Shown here piece after piece: positions 32,799 to 50,816 of a stretch of DNA of 64,000 nucleotides. The translations under genes and the position numbers were made by a program. Position 1 is the stretch's first letter; the number at the start of each line of letters is the position of its first letter. The stretch lies in contig OZ242274.1 in assembly GCA_965207375.1 (NCBI GenBank), forward strand, positions 576,001-640,000, given 5' to 3'. Under the pieces are notes generated by a model. The model worked only from the letters and a program-made list of their open reading frames with translations. It had not been told where the DNA came from and searched no databases. The stretch comes from Nitrosopumilaceae archaeon. GTDB taxonomy: Archaea > Thermoproteota > Nitrososphaeria > Nitrososphaerales > Nitrosopumilaceae.

Positions 32799-33232
32799 GG
32801 AATTTTTAGAATCTCTTTTGCTTTTGTAACAAAAATGTCTGCCTTTTCTACTAATTTTTTTCCTTGGGTTTCAGATATTGTCCCTACTCTGTCATACAAT
32901 GATTCATTTCTGCGCAATCTTGCCTTTCTAAAGTATTGTATAACGTCTTGCGATATTTTTGTAGAGTATACAACTTCAATAAATGATATTACTGCCACAT
33001 GATGCTCTTGACTTTTTGGTCTGTATCCTTTTGAGAACATTAATGCCCGACCTGCTTGTAGCATTGCATTGTAGGCAGCGTTGTGAGCCCATCCCCACTC
33101 TTTAATCTTTAACATCTTTTTAGCAGAAGCGACATCCTTTGATGCAATCATTATCTCGTTTTTGATCTGCGCAATGTCGGCAGATTCAAATTTTTCAACT
33201 AAATTCTTTTTTAATAGATCGCTTAAATTCAT
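32795..33232 (-). CDS. HEPN domain protein (toxin-like partner of MNT)
   Basis: AYNAMLQAGRALM..KG...H and RNESLY (Rx4Y) motifs; overlaps the MNT gene. Confidence 0.85.
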   Translation of the reverse strand: MNLSDLLKKNLVEKFESADIAQIKNEIMIASKDVASAKKMLKIKEWGWAHNAAYNAMLQAGRALMFSKGYRPKSQEHHVAVISFIEVVYSTKISQDVIQYFRKARLRRNESLYDRVGTISETQGKKLVEKADIFVTKAKEILKIP

Positions 33233-33797
33233 TCTTATCTCCAACTATCATTATTACAGGAGTCTTTAAGATCTCCTTTAGCAAAGGGATTTTTTCATTC
33301 GATTTTTTCTTAAACTCTTTTTCAGTCCATGTTGAAATGTTAATCTCACATCCAATTTTCTTTTCAATTTTTGCAATTGAGTTTAATAATGAATCCTCAT
33401 CCACACTGTCTCCAATTATCAACATATCGACATCGCTTGTTGCCATTTCTGTGCCTTTTGCCACTGAGCCATATATCGCAGCGTACTTGATCTCTTTTTT
33501 GTCCCCTTCGAGTCCCTTACGTATCACCTGCCCTATACTTTCAGTCTTGAGAAATATTCTTTTGAGGTCCTCCCAAATTGGTGAAGCTCTCTCAAGTCTA
33601 TACAAGACCATGTTTCCCTCCTTTCTACTTTTTAAGAGTCCCAATGACTGTAGATTTTTGAGCTCTTTTTGTACATAAATGGGAGATATTTCCACAATTC
33701 TTGATAACTTTCGTATATGATATTGTGCATCAGGGTTCAGCAAGATCTGCTCTAGGATCTTTACTCTTGCCTTTGATGTGAAGAGTTTTTCTAGCAT
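33195..33797 (-). CDS. wHTH-fused minimal nucleotidyltransferase (MNT antitoxin-like)
   Basis: N-terminal wHTH; YGSVAKGTEMATSDVDML (GSx10DxD). Confidence 0.88.
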   Translation of the reverse strand: MLEKLFTSKARVKILEQILLNPDAQYHIRKLSRIVEISPIYVQKELKNLQSLGLLKSRKEGNMVLYRLERASPIWEDLKRIFLKTESIGQVIRKGLEGDKKEIKYAAIYGSVAKGTEMATSDVDMLIIGDSVDEDSLLNSIAKIEKKIGCEINISTWTEKEFKKKSNEKIPLLKEILKTPVIMIVGDKNEFKRSIKKEFS

Positions 33798-34044
33798 ATA
33801 TGTATACTAAATATATACAAACGTAAATAAAAAGTTTACAATAAAATTTCTAGTATCTAAATCGTTTTGGTAAAGCAACAGCGATGCACTGAATACAATC
33901 TTTTGCTCTCTTCTGTCCAACAAGAGTGGGCAATCTAGACTGGATATAAACAGGTAAAACCCATACGTCCGTATACTAGAATCCTTGTAAGTGTTTACGT
34001 CGTGAACACATGATAACCACCCCTGCGCTGTACTAGTGATGAAT

Positions 34045-34150
34045 CGACCCCTGATTAGGTATGGGCTATGCGCCCTTGGTCGTGAATGGGGCAATCCGAG
34101 CTGCTGTGTAATTGGGCTACGCGCCCTGATAGATGTGTGCAGCTTCCGAT
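34045..34150 (+). ncRNA. Predicted bridge/seek RNA of IS1111 element 1 (target loop plus donor loop)
   Basis: Two loops with the internal hairpin GGGCTAYGCGCCC; guide segments match the target and the donor junction (see findings); ends approximate. Confidence 0.8.
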
Positions 34151-34185
34151 CCGTCAAAACATCCGTAAGGAGGTGAAAAGAAAGG

Positions 34186-35277
34186 ATGAAAACATACATT
34201 GGAATAGACATTGGAAAGAAAAAGTGTGACGTATGCGTCATAAATGGTACAGGACGAGTACTTGAGACCTGTCAGTATATGAACACGGTAGCAGATGCTA
34301 AAAAGTTTGCAGAAACCATGGCACGAAAATACACGGGAAATAAAAAAACATGCAGTGCTGCATGTGAAACTACAGGCAACATGTGGAATGTTACCTATGC
34401 TAAATTTGAGGCAGCAGGTATACCAATCAAGCTTGCAAATACGTACAAGATGGCCATAATTGCCAAGACTGGTAAAAAGACAGACAAGGTGGATGCACAA
34501 AAGATAGCACAGGTATTACGAATGGATATGATTCCAGAATGTTATGTACCAAAACCGGACATACGAGGAATACGTGCAATGATACGACAGCATATCAAGA
34601 TAGTACATGATAGGACACGAGTGATAAACAGAGTACGCAGTCTTTTAGACAGACATGATGTCTCAATTGATACAGTACAAGTATATGCAGTAAAGACAAT
34701 GCAGTATCTAGAGTCTGTATCTCTTGATGAAATACATGATGAAATAATTCTGCAGCAATATGTCCGACAGATCAGACATCTGACCGAAGAGTTGACCAAA
34801 ATGAATGATTACATAGAACAAGAGGCAGCAAACAACGAGTATGCCAAACTATTGACAAGCATGACAGGGATGGGAACATATACTTCATTGTTGCTAGCAG
34901 TCGAAATTGCAGACATTTCAAGATTTGATAATCCAAAGAAACTTGTTGCATGGGCAGGTCTGTGTCCTACCATACACCAGTCAGGAGATCAAAAATATCT
35001 TGGAAGGATGAAGAAACTAGACACCAACAGTATAGTGAATTGGGCAATGTGCGAGGCAGCAAATGTGGCAGTAACACATGACCCTAGGATGAAATCAATA
35101 TACGAATCTGCAAAAAGGCGACATGCAGACAAGCATGCACTTGCAGTTGTTGTAGTTGCAAACAAGATGATAACAATATCATGGCACATTCTGAACACAA
35201 AGACACCATATTCGTCACACAATACAAGATTGTATCAGCGCAAGCTTGCTAAATTGGAAAAGGCACGTCAGAAATGA
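34186..35277 (+). CDS. IS110-family DEDD recombinase (transposase)
   Basis: YIGIDIGK, ACETTG, KTDKVDA, AWAGLCPTIHQSG (catalytic Ser) and VANKM motifs. Confidence 0.95.
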   Translation: MKTYIGIDIGKKKCDVCVINGTGRVLETCQYMNTVADAKKFAETMARKYTGNKKTCSAACETTGNMWNVTYAKFEAAGIPIKLANTYKMAIIAKTGKKTDKVDAQKIAQVLRMDMIPECYVPKPDIRGIRAMIRQHIKIVHDRTRVINRVRSLLDRHDVSIDTVQVYAVKTMQYLESVSLDEIHDEIILQQYVRQIRHLTEELTKMNDYIEQEAANNEYAKLLTSMTGMGTYTSLLLAVEIADISRFDNPKKLVAWAGLCPTIHQSGDQKYLGRMKKLDTNSIVNWAMCEAANVAVTHDPRMKSIYESAKRRHADKHALAVVVVANKMITISWHILNTKTPYSSHNTRLYQRKLAKLEKARQK

Positions 35278-35479
35278 TTTGTACCTGTCAAATCCGGTAT
35301 TAAGCTTGCTAGCGTTAGCTATAAATGATATACTAAATAATTAGGCACGGAACGGAAACGCAATAGGGATACATCAAGGTACGCGCCGGGGTGGTTAACA
35401 TAGATGCCTAGATTTTGACCATTTACGATCAAATTTTTGGCAACATGATCTAAATGAGGTCAAATAGCCAAACCATACA

Positions 35480-36889
35480 TTGACAGATTTCAAAAAACTC
35501 TACAAAGCCGAACGAACTAAGAATCTAAAACTCGAACAGATGATGGAGTTGAAAGATGCCATGATCCAAAAAAAAGATGACAACGAAAAAAAACTAAAAG
35601 ATCTAGTAAAGGAGTTAGAAAACAACATACACAATTTGAAAACTATTGCCACTGATCTTAATAAAAAACTCCAATTTTATGATAACGCACACACTCCACC
35701 ATCACGCAAGATGCCAGAAAAGAAGAAAACTGATAATAAAAACAAGGATAAAAACAAGAAAACAACAGGTGAGCGAGGAGCACCAAAGGGACACAAAGGT
35801 GCAACAAGCAAGCCAAAACCTACAAAATTCAAACAACACACGCCAGCAAAATGTCCAGAGTGTGGCTCAAAAGATCTTAAAATTATCAAAACACAGATAC
35901 GTGACATTACAGAAGTACCGCCACAGGTACAACCTGAAACAACACGTCATCATGTAGATTTGTGCTCATGCAAAAACTGTGGCAAAAAAGACATAATCCC
36001 AGAGACTGATTTTCCTACAAAAGGCAATTATGGCAACAATATAGTAACACAGGCAGTAGCAAATTATATCGACAGACTACCTCATCGCAGAAACGCAGAA
36101 GCACTGACCTTGAGGGGAATCAAAATATCTCCAGCTTCTGCACACAACATAATAACCATGGTTGGTGCGTGCCTAACGGCACCCACAAAACAACTCCTAA
36201 AGGCAATCAGGGCTGCAGTCCTGTTACACATAGATGAGACATCAATACACCTAAACGGCAAAAACGTATGGGCGTGGGTATTTTACATTCCAGGTACAAA
36301 TACTGCACTGTATGTGGTACGGCCTAGCAGGGGAAGAGACGTACTCGAAGAGATACTAGGAGATGACTGGAAGGGAACAATCATCTGTGACGGACACAAA
36401 CCGTACATGGTATATGATATCCAGAGATGTTGGGCTCACATCATGCGTGAGATGCACCACGAGACACAAAAATGTGGATGTAAAAAATGTCTGGGTGCAC
36501 AAGAGGCTCTCAAGAAAATATATGAAGATGCAAAAGATACCATAACTGCACGTATCTCGTATAAACGGCGCAAAAAAATACGGCGCAATCTGTATCGTCG
36601 TGTAAAGAGAATTATTAACACATACACTCCATTGCACAATCTCAAAAGATTCATGGGAAAGCTGGGACGAGCCCTACCAAACCTGTTCAGGTTTGTGCTG
36701 GATCCTACCATACCTCCTACCAACAATACAGCAGAACGTGCACTGCGTGAGATTGTTGTACACAGAAAAATACGTGGTGGAATCAGATCCGAAAAAAGCA
36801 TGGAGACATTGGGCAATTTGTTTTCATGTGTGATGACTTGGAGAAATGCTGGATTAAATTATCTAGAAGAGATGGCAAAATACCTCTAG
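35480..36889 (+). CDS. IS66 TnpC-like DDE transposase
   Basis: Coiled coil, TPPS, GAPKGHKG, CPECG, HIDET, ICDG, QRCWAH and PTNNTAERALR motifs. Confidence 0.93.
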   Translation: MTDFKKLYKAERTKNLKLEQMMELKDAMIQKKDDNEKKLKDLVKELENNIHNLKTIATDLNKKLQFYDNAHTPPSRKMPEKKKTDNKNKDKNKKTTGERGAPKGHKGATSKPKPTKFKQHTPAKCPECGSKDLKIIKTQIRDITEVPPQVQPETTRHHVDLCSCKNCGKKDIIPETDFPTKGNYGNNIVTQAVANYIDRLPHRRNAEALTLRGIKISPASAHNIITMVGACLTAPTKQLLKAIRAAVLLHIDETSIHLNGKNVWAWVFYIPGTNTALYVVRPSRGRDVLEEILGDDWKGTIICDGHKPYMVYDIQRCWAHIMREMHHETQKCGCKKCLGAQEALKKIYEDAKDTITARISYKRRKKIRRNLYRRVKRIINTYTPLHNLKRFMGKLGRALPNLFRFVLDPTIPPTNNTAERALREIVVHRKIRGGIRSEKSMETLGNLFSCVMTWRNAGLNYLEEMAKYL

Positions 36890-36968
36890 AGACGTAAAAA
36901 CCACGTTAACACTTACAAAATAACTATTGTAGACTAGGTATTTATTCACGCCTGCAAAATACGGTGTT

Positions 36969-44298: not shown

Positions 44299-44355
44299 GT
44301 AAGTGTTAACGTCATGAACACATGATAACCGCCCTAGCGCAGGTTAGTGGTGAAT
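44299..44355 (+). mobile_element. Truncated IS66-B TIR / IS1111-1 left-end junction (second, diverged copy)
   Basis: GTAAGTGTTAACGTCA-TG-AACAC-ATGATAACCGCCCTAGCGC..., homologous to 33987-34044. Confidence 0.85.
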
Positions 44356-44461
44356 TTCCATCTACTGAAATTTATATGGATTCGTCAAAAATATAATTTC
44401 ACATGTACCATTATTCCAAATATTTCTTGCAATAGTTTAGATTTTAACTAGGAAAAATACA

Positions 44462-49275: not shown

Positions 49276-49444
49276 TACTGATTTTTGGTTAGTAATTAAA
49301 TGCTAAGATCAAGTCATCAGACACTCAAATTTATAGTGGTCTTTACCATCAGTATCTATGTGCAGTCTTAATAAAGACTTGGTTGGATTTTGCTAGTTGG
49401 AGTATGACTTTCACTAGAACAATACTTTTTCAAAAATGAAGGTC

Positions 49445-49563
49445 GGAAATGTATCTATTCGGGCATTAAATCCCAGTACCATGCTTCATCCATTCATTAG
49501 GGTCAAAGTGTAGTTAGTTCCCCGGGCATCGAATCCCATACTGTGATCACACAAATCCCTAAC
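49445..49563 (-). ncRNA. Predicted bridge/seek RNA of IS1111 element 2
   Basis: Two loops with the internal hairpin GGG-ATTYRATG-CCC; guides GGAACTA/CAGTA and ATAGATA/ATGGT match target and donor; ends approximate. Confidence 0.85.
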
Positions 49564-49578
49564 CATAATGATATCATC

Positions 49579-50787
49579 TCAACTTCGCAGCTGACGTGCA
49601 GTGCTCTTTTGTCCCTCCTTTATACACGTCTCAAAATCAATCTGTTTAATCAACATCCAAAATACACTTTTTAATAATTTGGCAGCAGCTGCTACCCTGG
49701 CCTTTGACCTCCCACGCCTTTTTGCAAGACGTTTGTAAAACACACTAACAGGCGTATATGATTCCCTTTTCTCGGTGACTGCTAGATGTGTAACTACTGC
49801 CTCGACAAGTGCGTGTCTTACTAGAGATGCGCCCATCTTTGTTATGTGTCCATGATGGACAGTATCTGCAGAACGTCTAACTGATGGAACCAATCCAAAA
49901 TACGATGCCAGATGATCTTCATCAGAAAACCTTGCAATATCATCTATTTCAGAAGACAACACAAGTGCAGTATAGTTGGCTATTCCGGGTATCGTGGTGA
50001 GAAGTTGTGCGTTTTTATCCTCCTGTACCTGTTGTTTGATTTGCAGGTTGGCATACGTGATACTGTCTGTAACAGAGGCTAGATTCTTTAGATGCTGGTC
50101 TATTCTCCAGTTGTTTAGCTGGAGCAGTCTCTTTGTATATGGTCCACAAAACGGCGTTCCAGGTATGTCAATGCCTTCCTGTAACAAGATTCCGTGTATC
50201 ATGTTCTTAAAGCGAGTAGACTCTTGGACCATCTTGTGTCTGTATCTGACAAGCTGTTGCTTTTTTACAGTGTTTTCATCTGGTACATGGCATGCTGCAA
50301 CATAATCTCCACGCAGGAGGTCTGCAAGTATTTGCGCATCTACCTTATCTGTCTTCTTTTTAGACTCTGCAATGAGCCTTGTTTTGTATGGGTTAGATAA
50401 TGTTACGTCTAGTTTCAGCTTATCTGTGAGCATACGGTATATGCCGTACCATACAGATGATGATTCTAGTACGTATTTTGCATTCTTTGGCATTTTGGAA
50501 AACGCCTTTTTGATTGCAACCGGATTGCACTCTATCCTGCGGTTCTCATGCACCTTGCCGTCTTTATCCATTACTGCGACCTGCATGAATTTTTTGTGTA
50601 GATCTATTCCAACAAAGTATTTGGGTTTGGTTTTGGGGGTGTTGTTTTGGCCTGTCTTAGATGTCTTTACCTTTGAATTTGTTTTTTTGACAGACCTCAC
50701 ATTTTTTGGATTTTTTTTGCATAATCTGTTTGTTTGCTTTTTGGTAGCATTACCGGTACCATCTAAACCAGAGTTTTTTCGGGGCAC
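49579..50787 (-). CDS. IS110-family DEDD recombinase with Lys-rich N-terminal extension
   Basis: FVGIDLHK, VLESS, KTDKVDA, IPGI, YFGLVPSVRRSA and VAAAAKL motifs. Confidence 0.94.
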   Translation of the reverse strand: MPRKNSGLDGTGNATKKQTNRLCKKNPKNVRSVKKTNSKVKTSKTGQNNTPKTKPKYFVGIDLHKKFMQVAVMDKDGKVHENRRIECNPVAIKKAFSKMPKNAKYVLESSSVWYGIYRMLTDKLKLDVTLSNPYKTRLIAESKKKTDKVDAQILADLLRGDYVAACHVPDENTVKKQQLVRYRHKMVQESTRFKNMIHGILLQEGIDIPGTPFCGPYTKRLLQLNNWRIDQHLKNLASVTDSITYANLQIKQQVQEDKNAQLLTTIPGIANYTALVLSSEIDDIARFSDEDHLASYFGLVPSVRRSADTVHHGHITKMGASLVRHALVEAVVTHLAVTEKRESYTPVSVFYKRLAKRRGRSKARVAAAAKLLKSVFWMLIKQIDFETCIKEGQKSTARQLRS

Positions 50788-50816
50788 ATATGGTTAGTTC
50801 CGATTTTAAATCCAGA

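Follow-up and report, generated by a model that had tools for sequence, protein, structure and literature searches.

An IS1111-type insertion sequence of a Nitrososphaeria archaeon with a predicted two-loop bridge RNA encoded in its left end

The window analysed here is a 64,000-nucleotide (nt) stretch of a Nitrosopumilaceae archaeon (GenBank assembly GCA_965207375.1, contig OZ242274.1, forward-strand positions 576,001 to 640,000), and coordinates below count from its first letter unless a genome position is given. Positions 34005-35406 very probably hold an intact insertion sequence of the IS110 family and the IS1111 type, whose left end encodes a predicted two-loop bridge (seek) RNA, a reading drawn from sequence comparison. 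The host belongs to the class Nitrososphaeria; the small-subunit (SSU) ribosomal RNA of its genome matches SSU_rRNA_archaea at 1445 bits, and the closest recombinases in named records come from Nitrosopumilus and Nitrososphaerales assemblies. The first-pass annotation, made from the DNA letters, had described a bridge-RNA element programmed against the left end of an IS66 element. The junctions, loops, guides and coordinates that it gave are all present to the base, and the pattern goes beyond chance, as indicated by three empty copies of the site, four guides that covary and stems with compensatory changes. The element, its borders and the genes concerned are as follows.

33987-34002, plus strand: target half on the left, formed by the opening 16 nt of an IS66-family element's left terminal inverted repeat (GTAAGTGTTTACGTCG)
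34003-34004, plus strand: left core dinucleotide TG (single TG in empty sites; TG on both sides of all four copies)
34005-35406, plus strand: IS110-family element with IS1111-type ends, 1402 bp counting one core, from the alignment of four copies
34010-34028, plus strand: left sub-terminal inverted repeat ATGATAACCACCCCTGCGC, complementary to the right repeat at 17/19
34169-34175, plus strand: Shine-Dalgarno-like GGAGGTG, 10 nt ahead of the start codon, conserved in the family alignment
34186-35277, plus strand: recombinase gene, 363 amino acids (aa), from Pfam, translation and alignment to the ISCro4 and IS621 transposase chains
35383-35401, plus strand: right sub-terminal inverted repeat GCGCCGGGGTGGTTAACAT, complementary to the left repeat at 17/19
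35400-35406, plus strand: ATAGA at the right terminus with the right-hand TG core (TG itself at 35405-35406)
35407-35411, plus strand: right half of the target, CCTAG, running on into the IS66-family element, from empty-site comparison
35480-36889, plus strand: open reading frame (ORF) of the IS66-family transposase (DDE_Tnp_IS66, 1.2e-38, 133.6 bits)

The left junction reads TTTACGTCG-TG-AACAC, with its TG at 34003-34004, and the right junction reads CATAGA-TG-CCTAG, with its TG at 35405-35406. The uninterrupted sequence, GTAAGTGTTTACGTCGTG followed directly by CCTAGATTTTGACC, occurs at three other places in the genome. Each of these empty sites carries a single TG, so the target site is CGTCG-TG-CCTAG and the element inserted without target duplication. 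Both the empty sites and the TG flanks thus display the IS110-family trait of site-specific insertion without duplication, with a core dinucleotide that target and donor have in common. Each sub-terminal inverted repeat has 19 nt; as the first-pass annotation had stated, the left one lies 7 nt from its end (TG included in that end) and the right one 3 nt from its own. Their arms vary among orthologues, yet remain complementary.

The insertion point is 18 bp into the IS66-family element's left inverted repeat. The claim that an IS66 left end had been entered is borne out by the downstream DDE_Tnp_IS66 ORF, which also matches zf-IS66 at 25.9 bits, under the 27.3-bit cut-off, and by a right repeat at 36899-36916. 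Terminal inverted repeats of the IS66 family begin GTAAG, and so do both repeats here, the left one being GTAAGTGTTTACGTCGTG and the right one GTAAGTGTTAACGTGGTT on the minus strand. The interrupted element spans 33987-36916 with the insertion included, measures about 1.53 kb without it and has one transposase ORF. Its right repeat reads CGTGGTT-TTTAC where the left reads CGTCGTG-CCTAG, so only the left end of the IS66-family element is a target.

The recombinase encoded at 34186-35277 contains the DEDD_Tnp_IS110 (1.6e-27, 96.6 bits) and Transposase_20 (4.7e-21, 75.4 bits) domains, both above their cut-offs, which agrees with the IS110-family recombinase named at first pass. The predicted catalytic residues D8, E61, D100, D103 and S266-G267 are present; E61 was chosen by eye from the CETTG motif, while the GID, KTDxVDA and SG motifs were aligned with the ISCro4 chain 9t56. 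The C-terminal motif of the IS1111 group, GL-P----S(t)G, is found as GLCPTIHQSG, in a protein of 363 aa compared with 330-350 aa for the group. Assignment to the IS1111 type rests on the repeats, the extensions and the order of the guides rather than on a tree with labelled IS1111 and IS110 references; the available protein chains of the PDB are all of the IS110 group, and nearly all matches in plasmid records are named 'IS110 family transposase'.

The left non-coding end is 181 nt long, lies upstream of the recombinase gene on the same strand and holds two loops, whose predicted parts are listed below.

34036-34046, plus strand: 5' strand of the closing helix, P1 (GTGATGAATCG), pairing with 34146-34156
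34048-34091, plus strand: target-binding loop with outer stem CCCC (34048-34051) and GGGG (34088-34091) and cap GGGC-UAUGC-GCCC (34063-34075), from compensatory changes
34055-34061, plus strand: 5' target guide TTAGG-TA, complementary to the top strand TG-CCTAG (right target)
34078-34086, plus strand: 3' target guide GGTCG-TG (34078-34084), identical in sequence to the left target's top strand with the core, followed by AA, the first two letters of the left end
34099-34144, plus strand: donor-binding loop with outer stem AGCUGC (34099-34104) and GCAGCU (34139-34144) and cap GGGC-UACGC-GCCC (34114-34126), from stem comparison
34106-34110, plus strand: 5' donor guide GTGTA, complementary to the start of the left end, AACAC, at 4/5; the next letters, AT, are unpaired with the core
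34129-34135, plus strand: 3' donor guide ATAGA-TG, identical to the right end's final five letters and the core
34144-34155, plus strand: 3' strand of the closing helix (TTCCGATCCGTC), pairing with 34036-34046 and also complementary to 35346-35357 in the right end

On the target side, GTCGTG agrees with the left target plus core at 6/6 positions (6/7 when the preceding G is included), TTAGG pairs with CCTAG through four Watson-Crick pairs and one G.U pair, and TA pairs with the core TG through one Watson-Crick and one G.U pair. On the donor side, ATAGATG equals the right end plus core at 7/7, and GTGTA pairs with AACAC at 4/5. At the sequence level, guides and stems thus display the IS110-family trait of an RNA whose target and donor loops each pair with the two strands.

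The stems are conserved as pairs. In an alignment of 42 sequences (L086 is not among them; L-numbers are locus labels), pairing holds in 92.2% of the cells that make up the loop stems, the caps and a short extension, with compensatory change in 15 of the 22 pairs. None of 500 shuffles reaches this level, and controls slid by 1-3 columns reach 27-54%. The closing helix behaves in the same way: the 10 nt preceding loop 1 pair with the 10 nt following loop 2, and the pairing survives sequence change. Across 39 distinct pairs the own P1 duplex averages -14.6 kcal/mol against -8.6 kcal/mol for mismatched partners (0/5000 permutations as good), and the 390 cells comprise 299 Watson-Crick, 42 G.U and 23 A.C combinations. 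Since P1 covaries within the left end, that end would encode a closed, self-sufficient two-loop RNA.

The genome holds four full-length copies of the element, at 98-100% identity, with the flanks CGTCG-TG/TG-CCTAG (the copy in the window), CGTCG-TG/TG-TCTAA, CGTCG-TG/TG-CCTGA and ATTTG-TG/TG-CCTAA. The TTAGG of the 5' target guide pairs with the right flanks of all four, by Watson-Crick or G.U pairs. In the fourth copy the guide TTTTTTGTG replaces TTGGTCGTG, so that the 3' guide reads TTTTG-TG for GGTCG-TG (GTCG to TTTG), and the flank has changed likewise; this copy lies midway in a short element flanked by repeats rather than in an IS66 end. The first-pass annotation had named copies at sites unrelated to the guides as the finding that would speak against a programmed element; all four full copies fit their guides, and one is retargeted. 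The retargeted sister copy thus amounts to a natural reprogramming experiment within one genome.

Several further observations concern these copies. The retargeted one (G000:C1:12327-13800) interrupts an element of about 80 bp with inverted ends of the GTA.TTGTTCACGT type, and in a second element of this type (C1:484241-484300) the same inner position is followed by 9 nt that are the reverse complement of the right-end tip, which may be a remnant. Locus L003 (G000:C1:875700-877122) is inserted in a diverged IS66-type end (GTATGAGTTCACGTCG-TG) and has a CAG to TAG change in its recombinase gene, so that it is probably dead. In two partial copies (G000:C1:555713-556203 and C1:1740058-1740203), and in a contig joint of sequencing run X4 (34069>34121), the stretch between the two near-identical GGGC..GCCC caps is lost, so that a single hybrid loop is left, which joins the target loop's 5' half to the 3' half of the donor loop. 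Recombination between 13-nt direct repeats is the likely origin of these cap-to-cap deletions.

A protein search of 401 genomes of the same class (E <= 1e-60) finds relatives of the recombinase in 35 genomes, which belong to 15 of the 81 genera. Seventy-seven loci were taken, and their upstream regions were located with a profile (69 matches, 53 unique sequences) in which the guide columns align without gaps. Left out of the counts were L047 and L048 (the same places as L039 and L038), L072 (truncated) and elements whose window ran off the contig. The first-pass annotation had proposed guide-target covariation across homologues as a check. In this set of about 50 related elements the stems covary, as described above, and all four guides covary with the DNA that they are predicted to read.

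For the 3' target guide, 64 copies could be compared with the DNA adjoining on the left, and the guide matches at 7/7 in 31 of them, 6/7 in 27, five positions in 3 and four in 3. Among distinct guides, 33/38 match their left flank at >=6/7, compared with 69/1406 mismatched pairs (0/2000 permutations). In 27/31 distinct guides the left end opens with the same two letters as those just past the guide, a relation with no counterpart at the 3' donor guide, where the two following letters do not match the right flank (20/64 letters). For the 3' donor guide, an element's own 7-mer occurs exactly in 54/63 right-hand windows, always at the right end, compared with 19/504 for the other types.

The 5' guides follow the same pattern. 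With the right junction fixed from the donor guide alone, the 5' target guide forms 5, 4, 3, 2, 1 and 0 of five Watson-Crick pairs in 16, 20, 11, 2, 3 and 1 of 53 copies, that is, >=4/5 in 36/53. The 29 distinct guides average 3.66 of five pairs with their own flanks and 1.35 with others (0/5000 permutations). For the 5' donor guide the corresponding means are 4.06 of five and 2.28 over 16 distinct guides (0/5000 permutations); the left ends differ among elements (AACAC, AATAC, AAGGC, GAAGC, AAAGC, ACTTT), and the guide changes along with them. The core-facing letters distinguish the two 5' guides. In the target guide they are CA, CG or TA in 55/58 elements, whereas in the donor guide they are AC, CC, AT or AG in 48/58 and are not complementary to TG.

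These results bear directly on the idea that the upstream region is merely a structured 5' leader of the recombinase mRNA, the protein picking the site and the matches being coincidental. The region does run into the Shine-Dalgarno sequence and start codon without an intervening T run, as such a leader would. Four independent guide-DNA covariations, each with 0 permutations as high, together with within-genome retargeting both here and in several other genomes (L054/L080, L069/L100, L088/L091), make this explanation highly improbable, and the covariation of the guides brings it close to refutation.

Retargeting extends beyond the genome of the window. In other genomes, too, sister copies have near-identical scaffolds and different target guides that match different sites; the loci concerned are L055/L083/L084/L085 (one genome), L054 and L080, L069 and L100-L106, and L088-L091. 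Judged from these sequences, natural retargeting is common in the clade. More distantly, the nearest plasmid-borne relatives of the recombinase are haloarchaeal, at 31-34% aa identity. Two of these elements, L115 and L116 from Haloarcula and Halorubrum plasmids, have the same upstream two-loop layout, with GTGC..GCAC caps, a TG core and a right end that closes with ...CATAGGTG. In both, the 3' guide equals the left flank plus TG at 7/7, and the 5' guide is the complement of TG plus the right flank at 7/7 in one and at 6/7, with one G.U, in the other. A candidate closing helix of 7-10 bp lies wholly in the left end of each, although single-sequence folds are ambiguous.

Taken as a bridge-RNA element, the insertion sequence would work as follows. 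A closing helix of about 10 bp (34036-34046 with 34146-34156) would enclose the target-binding loop and then the donor-binding loop, each formed by a short stem and a large internal loop together with a GGGC...GCCC cap. In both loops the 5' side would pair with the top strand to the right of the crossover (CCTAG plus the core on the target, AACAC on the donor), and the 3' side with the bottom strand to the left, so that it reads as the top strand (CGTCG-TG and ATAGA-TG). The 363-aa DEDD recombinase would then bring the circle junction ...ATAGA-TG-AACAC... into synapsis with the target ...CGTCG-TG-CCTAG..., with strand exchange at the TG that they have in common and no duplication. Synthesis of the RNA and its binding by the protein, the role of a circle as donor and the strand-exchange chemistry are inferred from published work on IS621, ISEc11 and ISEc21.

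A number of observations weigh against the bridge-RNA reading. The left end alone folds no better than shuffled sequence (z -0.51), so support for an RNA comes from comparison and not from folding energy, and a scan of 33000-36500 against Rfam 15 at E up to 1 gives no match. Among the sequencing runs on record, none listed as RNA was found to contain the stretch. Base-pair types are only mildly informative: the stems have 43 G.U against 24 A.C, a mild lean, and guide-target mispairs are 16 of G.U type and 12 of A.C type, which does not clearly indicate the RNA strand. Some guides fail. The 5' target guide pairs at 0/5 in L054 and at 1/5 in L046, L091 and L093, two of these four misses resembling a 1-nt bulge, and for the 5' donor guide the failures are L049, L051, L077 and L079 (with left ends AATGG, ATTGG, ATTAG) together with L053, L080 and L081. 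Six of 64 elements (L111, L091, L086, L066, L104 and L113) were left out of the donor test, their left junction not being placed. One of the four full-length copies has an in-frame TAG. Finally, no circle junction is found in the genome itself, and a 25-letter pattern of the junction has 0 matches in metagenome contigs. The contigs of four sequencing runs over 33700-35700 likewise contain no circle-type back-joint, though contigs cannot show absence.

Two further results concern the search for circles. A looser, 16-letter junction pattern gives 118 matches, and among 80 loci of these none has the non-coding region of the family or the flanking repeat letters; these matches are chance. The contigs of the four runs do contain internal skips (34069->34121, 34108->34194/34198 and 34335->35404) as well as loose ends at the element borders.

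The right end of the element is 127 nt long and, with its conserved blocks, is not mere spacer. Two of its features matter here.

35309-35325, plus strand: conserved CTAGCGTTAGC-TATAAA, a TATA-like box facing the right end, from the right-end alignment; a putative function
35346-35357, plus strand: segment CACGGAACGGAA, complementary to 34144-34155, starting about 25 nt past the TATA-like box

Past 35346-35357, sequence complementary to the left end continues through the sub-terminal repeat. The segment covaries with 34144-34155, the strand that closes the two loops (26 distinct pairs, -16.7 compared with -11.1 kcal/mol, 0/5000 permutations). When right and left ends are joined as in a circle, they fold at -88.5 kcal/mol (z -3.3 against 200 mononucleotide shuffles) into the closing helix, a long junction hairpin and the two loops, and the consensus fold of 15 joined sequences retains the right-end closing helix. 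This right-end strand is the one feature for which we find no explanation in published models.

One explanation, possible but on the whole doubtful, is that the working RNA is made from the excised circle. A right-end promoter (TATA-like box at 35320) would start a transcript near 35344 that crosses the joint of right end, TG and left end; 35346-35357 would close the loops, and the sub-terminal repeats would fold into a long hairpin whose loop holds the donor junction. The covariation of right-end and closing strands fits this, since wholly different sequences keep their pairing (for example L063, L088, L095, L105 and L060), as do the right-end helix in the 15-sequence consensus fold and the z score of the joined ends when set against -0.5 for the left end alone. 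Most right ends have a conserved box (GCTATAAAT, GCTTTAAAG or GCTTAAGAAG) some 25 nt ahead of the strand, and the flanks upstream of the left end vary between copies, so that there is no conserved promoter there. Acquisition of a promoter on end joining is described for published elements (Siddiquee 2024, PMC11187229). One IS110 bridge-RNA preprint, in the passages that use the term, means by 'circle junction' the partial-circle junctions of bacterial IS110 elements rather than a junction-spanning transcript.

Several observations tell against a transcript from the circle. A covarying 5' strand for the helix is already present in the left end, so the right end is not needed, and the direction of the TATA-like box is ambiguous, the box itself being only putative. 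An unbiased, ungapped count of the helix between right end and left end gives 19 G.U against 30 A.C, and folds of the reverse strand have an equal excess of G.U, so that action of the complementarity at the RNA level is not established. The junction sequence, as noted above, is missing from the genome itself, from the contigs of the four runs and from the metagenome contigs. A count of G.U against A.C in minimum-energy folds was tried as a test of the RNA strand and rejected: it gave 50 to 13, but 49 to 10 on the reverse strand.

The complementarity of the two ends might instead act on DNA, as a long inverted repeat read by the recombinase or through left-end RNA annealing to right-end DNA so that the two ends are kept together, the bridge RNA being a transcript of the left end alone. 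The lack of a G.U excess over A.C in the helix is what a DNA-level repeat would give, and the role of the sub-terminal repeats that define the IS1111 group is left unsettled in the relevant passages of Siddiquee 2024 (PMC11187229) and Durrant 2024 (PMC11208160). We nevertheless consider this explanation unlikely. The left-end partner lies about 130 nt further in, beyond both loops, which is odd for an inverted repeat read by a protein, and it is the very strand that closes the RNA. In addition, the sequences vary freely while staying complementary, as is more usual where nucleic acids pair than at a protein site. A scaffold of the bridge RNA shared by both ends of the element, with a right-end promoter and a 12-nt strand selected to pair with the loop-closing strand of the left end, is an idea that we put forward tentatively.

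Among known systems, the element resembles the IS1111 group (ISEc11, ISPa11, IS4321, IS5075) in its DEDD recombinase with GL-P----SG, its 7-nt and 3-nt extensions and the lack of target duplication. It shares with that group sub-terminal inverted repeats of 7-17 bp or more (17/19 here) and an RNA in which the segment pairing with the top strand lies 5' of the one pairing with the bottom strand. The choice of target also has a parallel: IS4321 and IS5075, in work credited to Partridge and Hall in 2003, reportedly target the inverted repeats of the Tn21 family, that is, the terminal repeat of another mobile element. It departs from the group in carrying the RNA upstream, in a 181-nt left end, where the group has a long right end with few published exceptions; the right end here is still 127 nt long with conserved blocks, and the host is an archaeon.

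The published descriptions place these traits as follows. Siddiquee 2024 (PMC11187229) reports, in its sections on IS1111 elements, that their left ends carry a 7-bp extension and that the order of top- and bottom-strand matches in IS1111 seekRNAs is reversed relative to IS110. The same source mentions a few IS1111 members with an upstream non-coding region, such as ISMtsp17, and the archaeal ISHvo10 with long regions on both sides. ISMtsp17 is IS1111-type and ISHvo10 diverged, and their likeness to the present element is by that published description, whose sections on them give neither an RNA structure nor guides. According to passages in Durrant 2024 (PMC11208160), the RNA lies in the left end in the IS110 group and in the right end in the IS1111 group, and in the loops of IS621 the 5' side reads the bottom strand and the 3' side the top strand.

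In common with IS621 and ISCro4, the element has its RNA in the left end, upstream of the recombinase, with the target-binding loop first and the donor-binding loop second, and each loop reads both strands around a shared core dinucleotide. The short guide extension that matches the recombination product is comparable in idea to handshake guides as outlined by Hiraizumi 2026. Unlike these elements, it has the reversed guide order, a TG core instead of CT, long (19-nt) sub-terminal repeats, and a 5' donor guide without core pairing; guide order and repeats both set it apart from the IS110 group. Its protein is only remotely similar to theirs (phmmer E 5e-14 for IS621, 1e-15 for ISCro4).

The first-pass annotation had called the archaeal host, the upstream RNA and the reversed guide order unusual, and this list was overstated. 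Archaeal hosts are known, 662 archaeal IS110 recombinases being counted in the part of the Vaysset 2024 preprint that deals with them. The guide order follows from the IS1111-type ends, of which it is the norm, and is not odd, and for an upstream RNA taken alone there are published exceptions. What stands is that the combination is uncommon, namely IS1111-type ends and guide order together with an RNA encoded in the left end. In the literature, 'bridge RNA' combined with Haloferax, Nitrososphaer-, Thaumarchaeota or 'archaeal genomes' was not found among the matches listed. Bridge and seek RNAs were described in 2024, from bacterial elements. The element is thus a member of a known system and ordinary in kind; its new aspect is the union of IS1111-type ends and order with a left-end RNA in a sizeable archaeal clade.

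A second IS110-family element lies in the window at 49345-50808 on the minus strand. By eye, it has the same loop module (5 nt + 2 + U + GGG..CCC cap + 2 + 7 nt) and the same right-end tip, ACATAGA, and it too is inserted in the end of another insertion sequence. It differs in that its two loops lie downstream of the gene, the standard IS1111 place, and are followed by a T run, and in its TA core; its recombinase is only 32% identical. Also by eye, its CAGTA and GGAACTA fit GGAAC-TA-CTG, and its ATGGT and ATAGATA fit ATAGA-TA-ACCAT.

The surroundings contain further traces of mobile elements. The genome is crowded with IS66-type and related ends, the 18-mer of the IS66 left end giving 89 matches at <=4 mismatches. 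On its left the interrupted IS66-family element adjoins a 200-aa ORF on the minus strand (33195-33797) with nucleotidyltransferase domains (Polbeta, NTP_transf_2). At 44299-44358 lies a fossil that consists of an IS66-type left end (18 nt, 2 mismatches, ...CGTCATG) and, behind it, roughly 40 nt from the left end of a related IS110 element (AACACATGATAACCGCCC...); next come unrelated sequence and a 243-aa ORF.

Our analysis suggests that the small RNA of a 1.4-kb mobile element in an archaeon of the ammonia-oxidising type specifies both the landing site and the element's own ends. It offers a clean natural archaeal example, in which four guides can be read directly and empty targets are present in the same genome. 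The element also uncouples traits that have been treated as linked, combining the guide order and repeats of the IS1111 type with the RNA position of the IS110 type, and since the same genome holds a relative with a downstream RNA, the pair bears on how the RNA moved between ends. Two design rules can be put to the test, namely that the 5' donor guide skips the core and that the 3' target guide extends two letters into the left end. The value of the set lies in compact comparative data, about 50 related elements whose target guides (38 distinct 3' and 29 distinct 5') are each known together with the insertion site, and in a possible new scaffold.

Should the scaffold indeed be shared by both ends, the consequences would reach further. 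A transcript spanning the circle junction would form a bridge RNA specific to the circle and closed in a different way, so that maturation of the guide RNA would be linked to excision; alternatively, left-end RNA would splint onto right-end DNA and bring the ends together. The element would then be a living intermediate form between an RNA placed in the right end (IS1111) and one placed in the left end (IS110), and the unexplained sub-terminal repeats of the IS1111 group would gain a role in nucleic-acid pairing.

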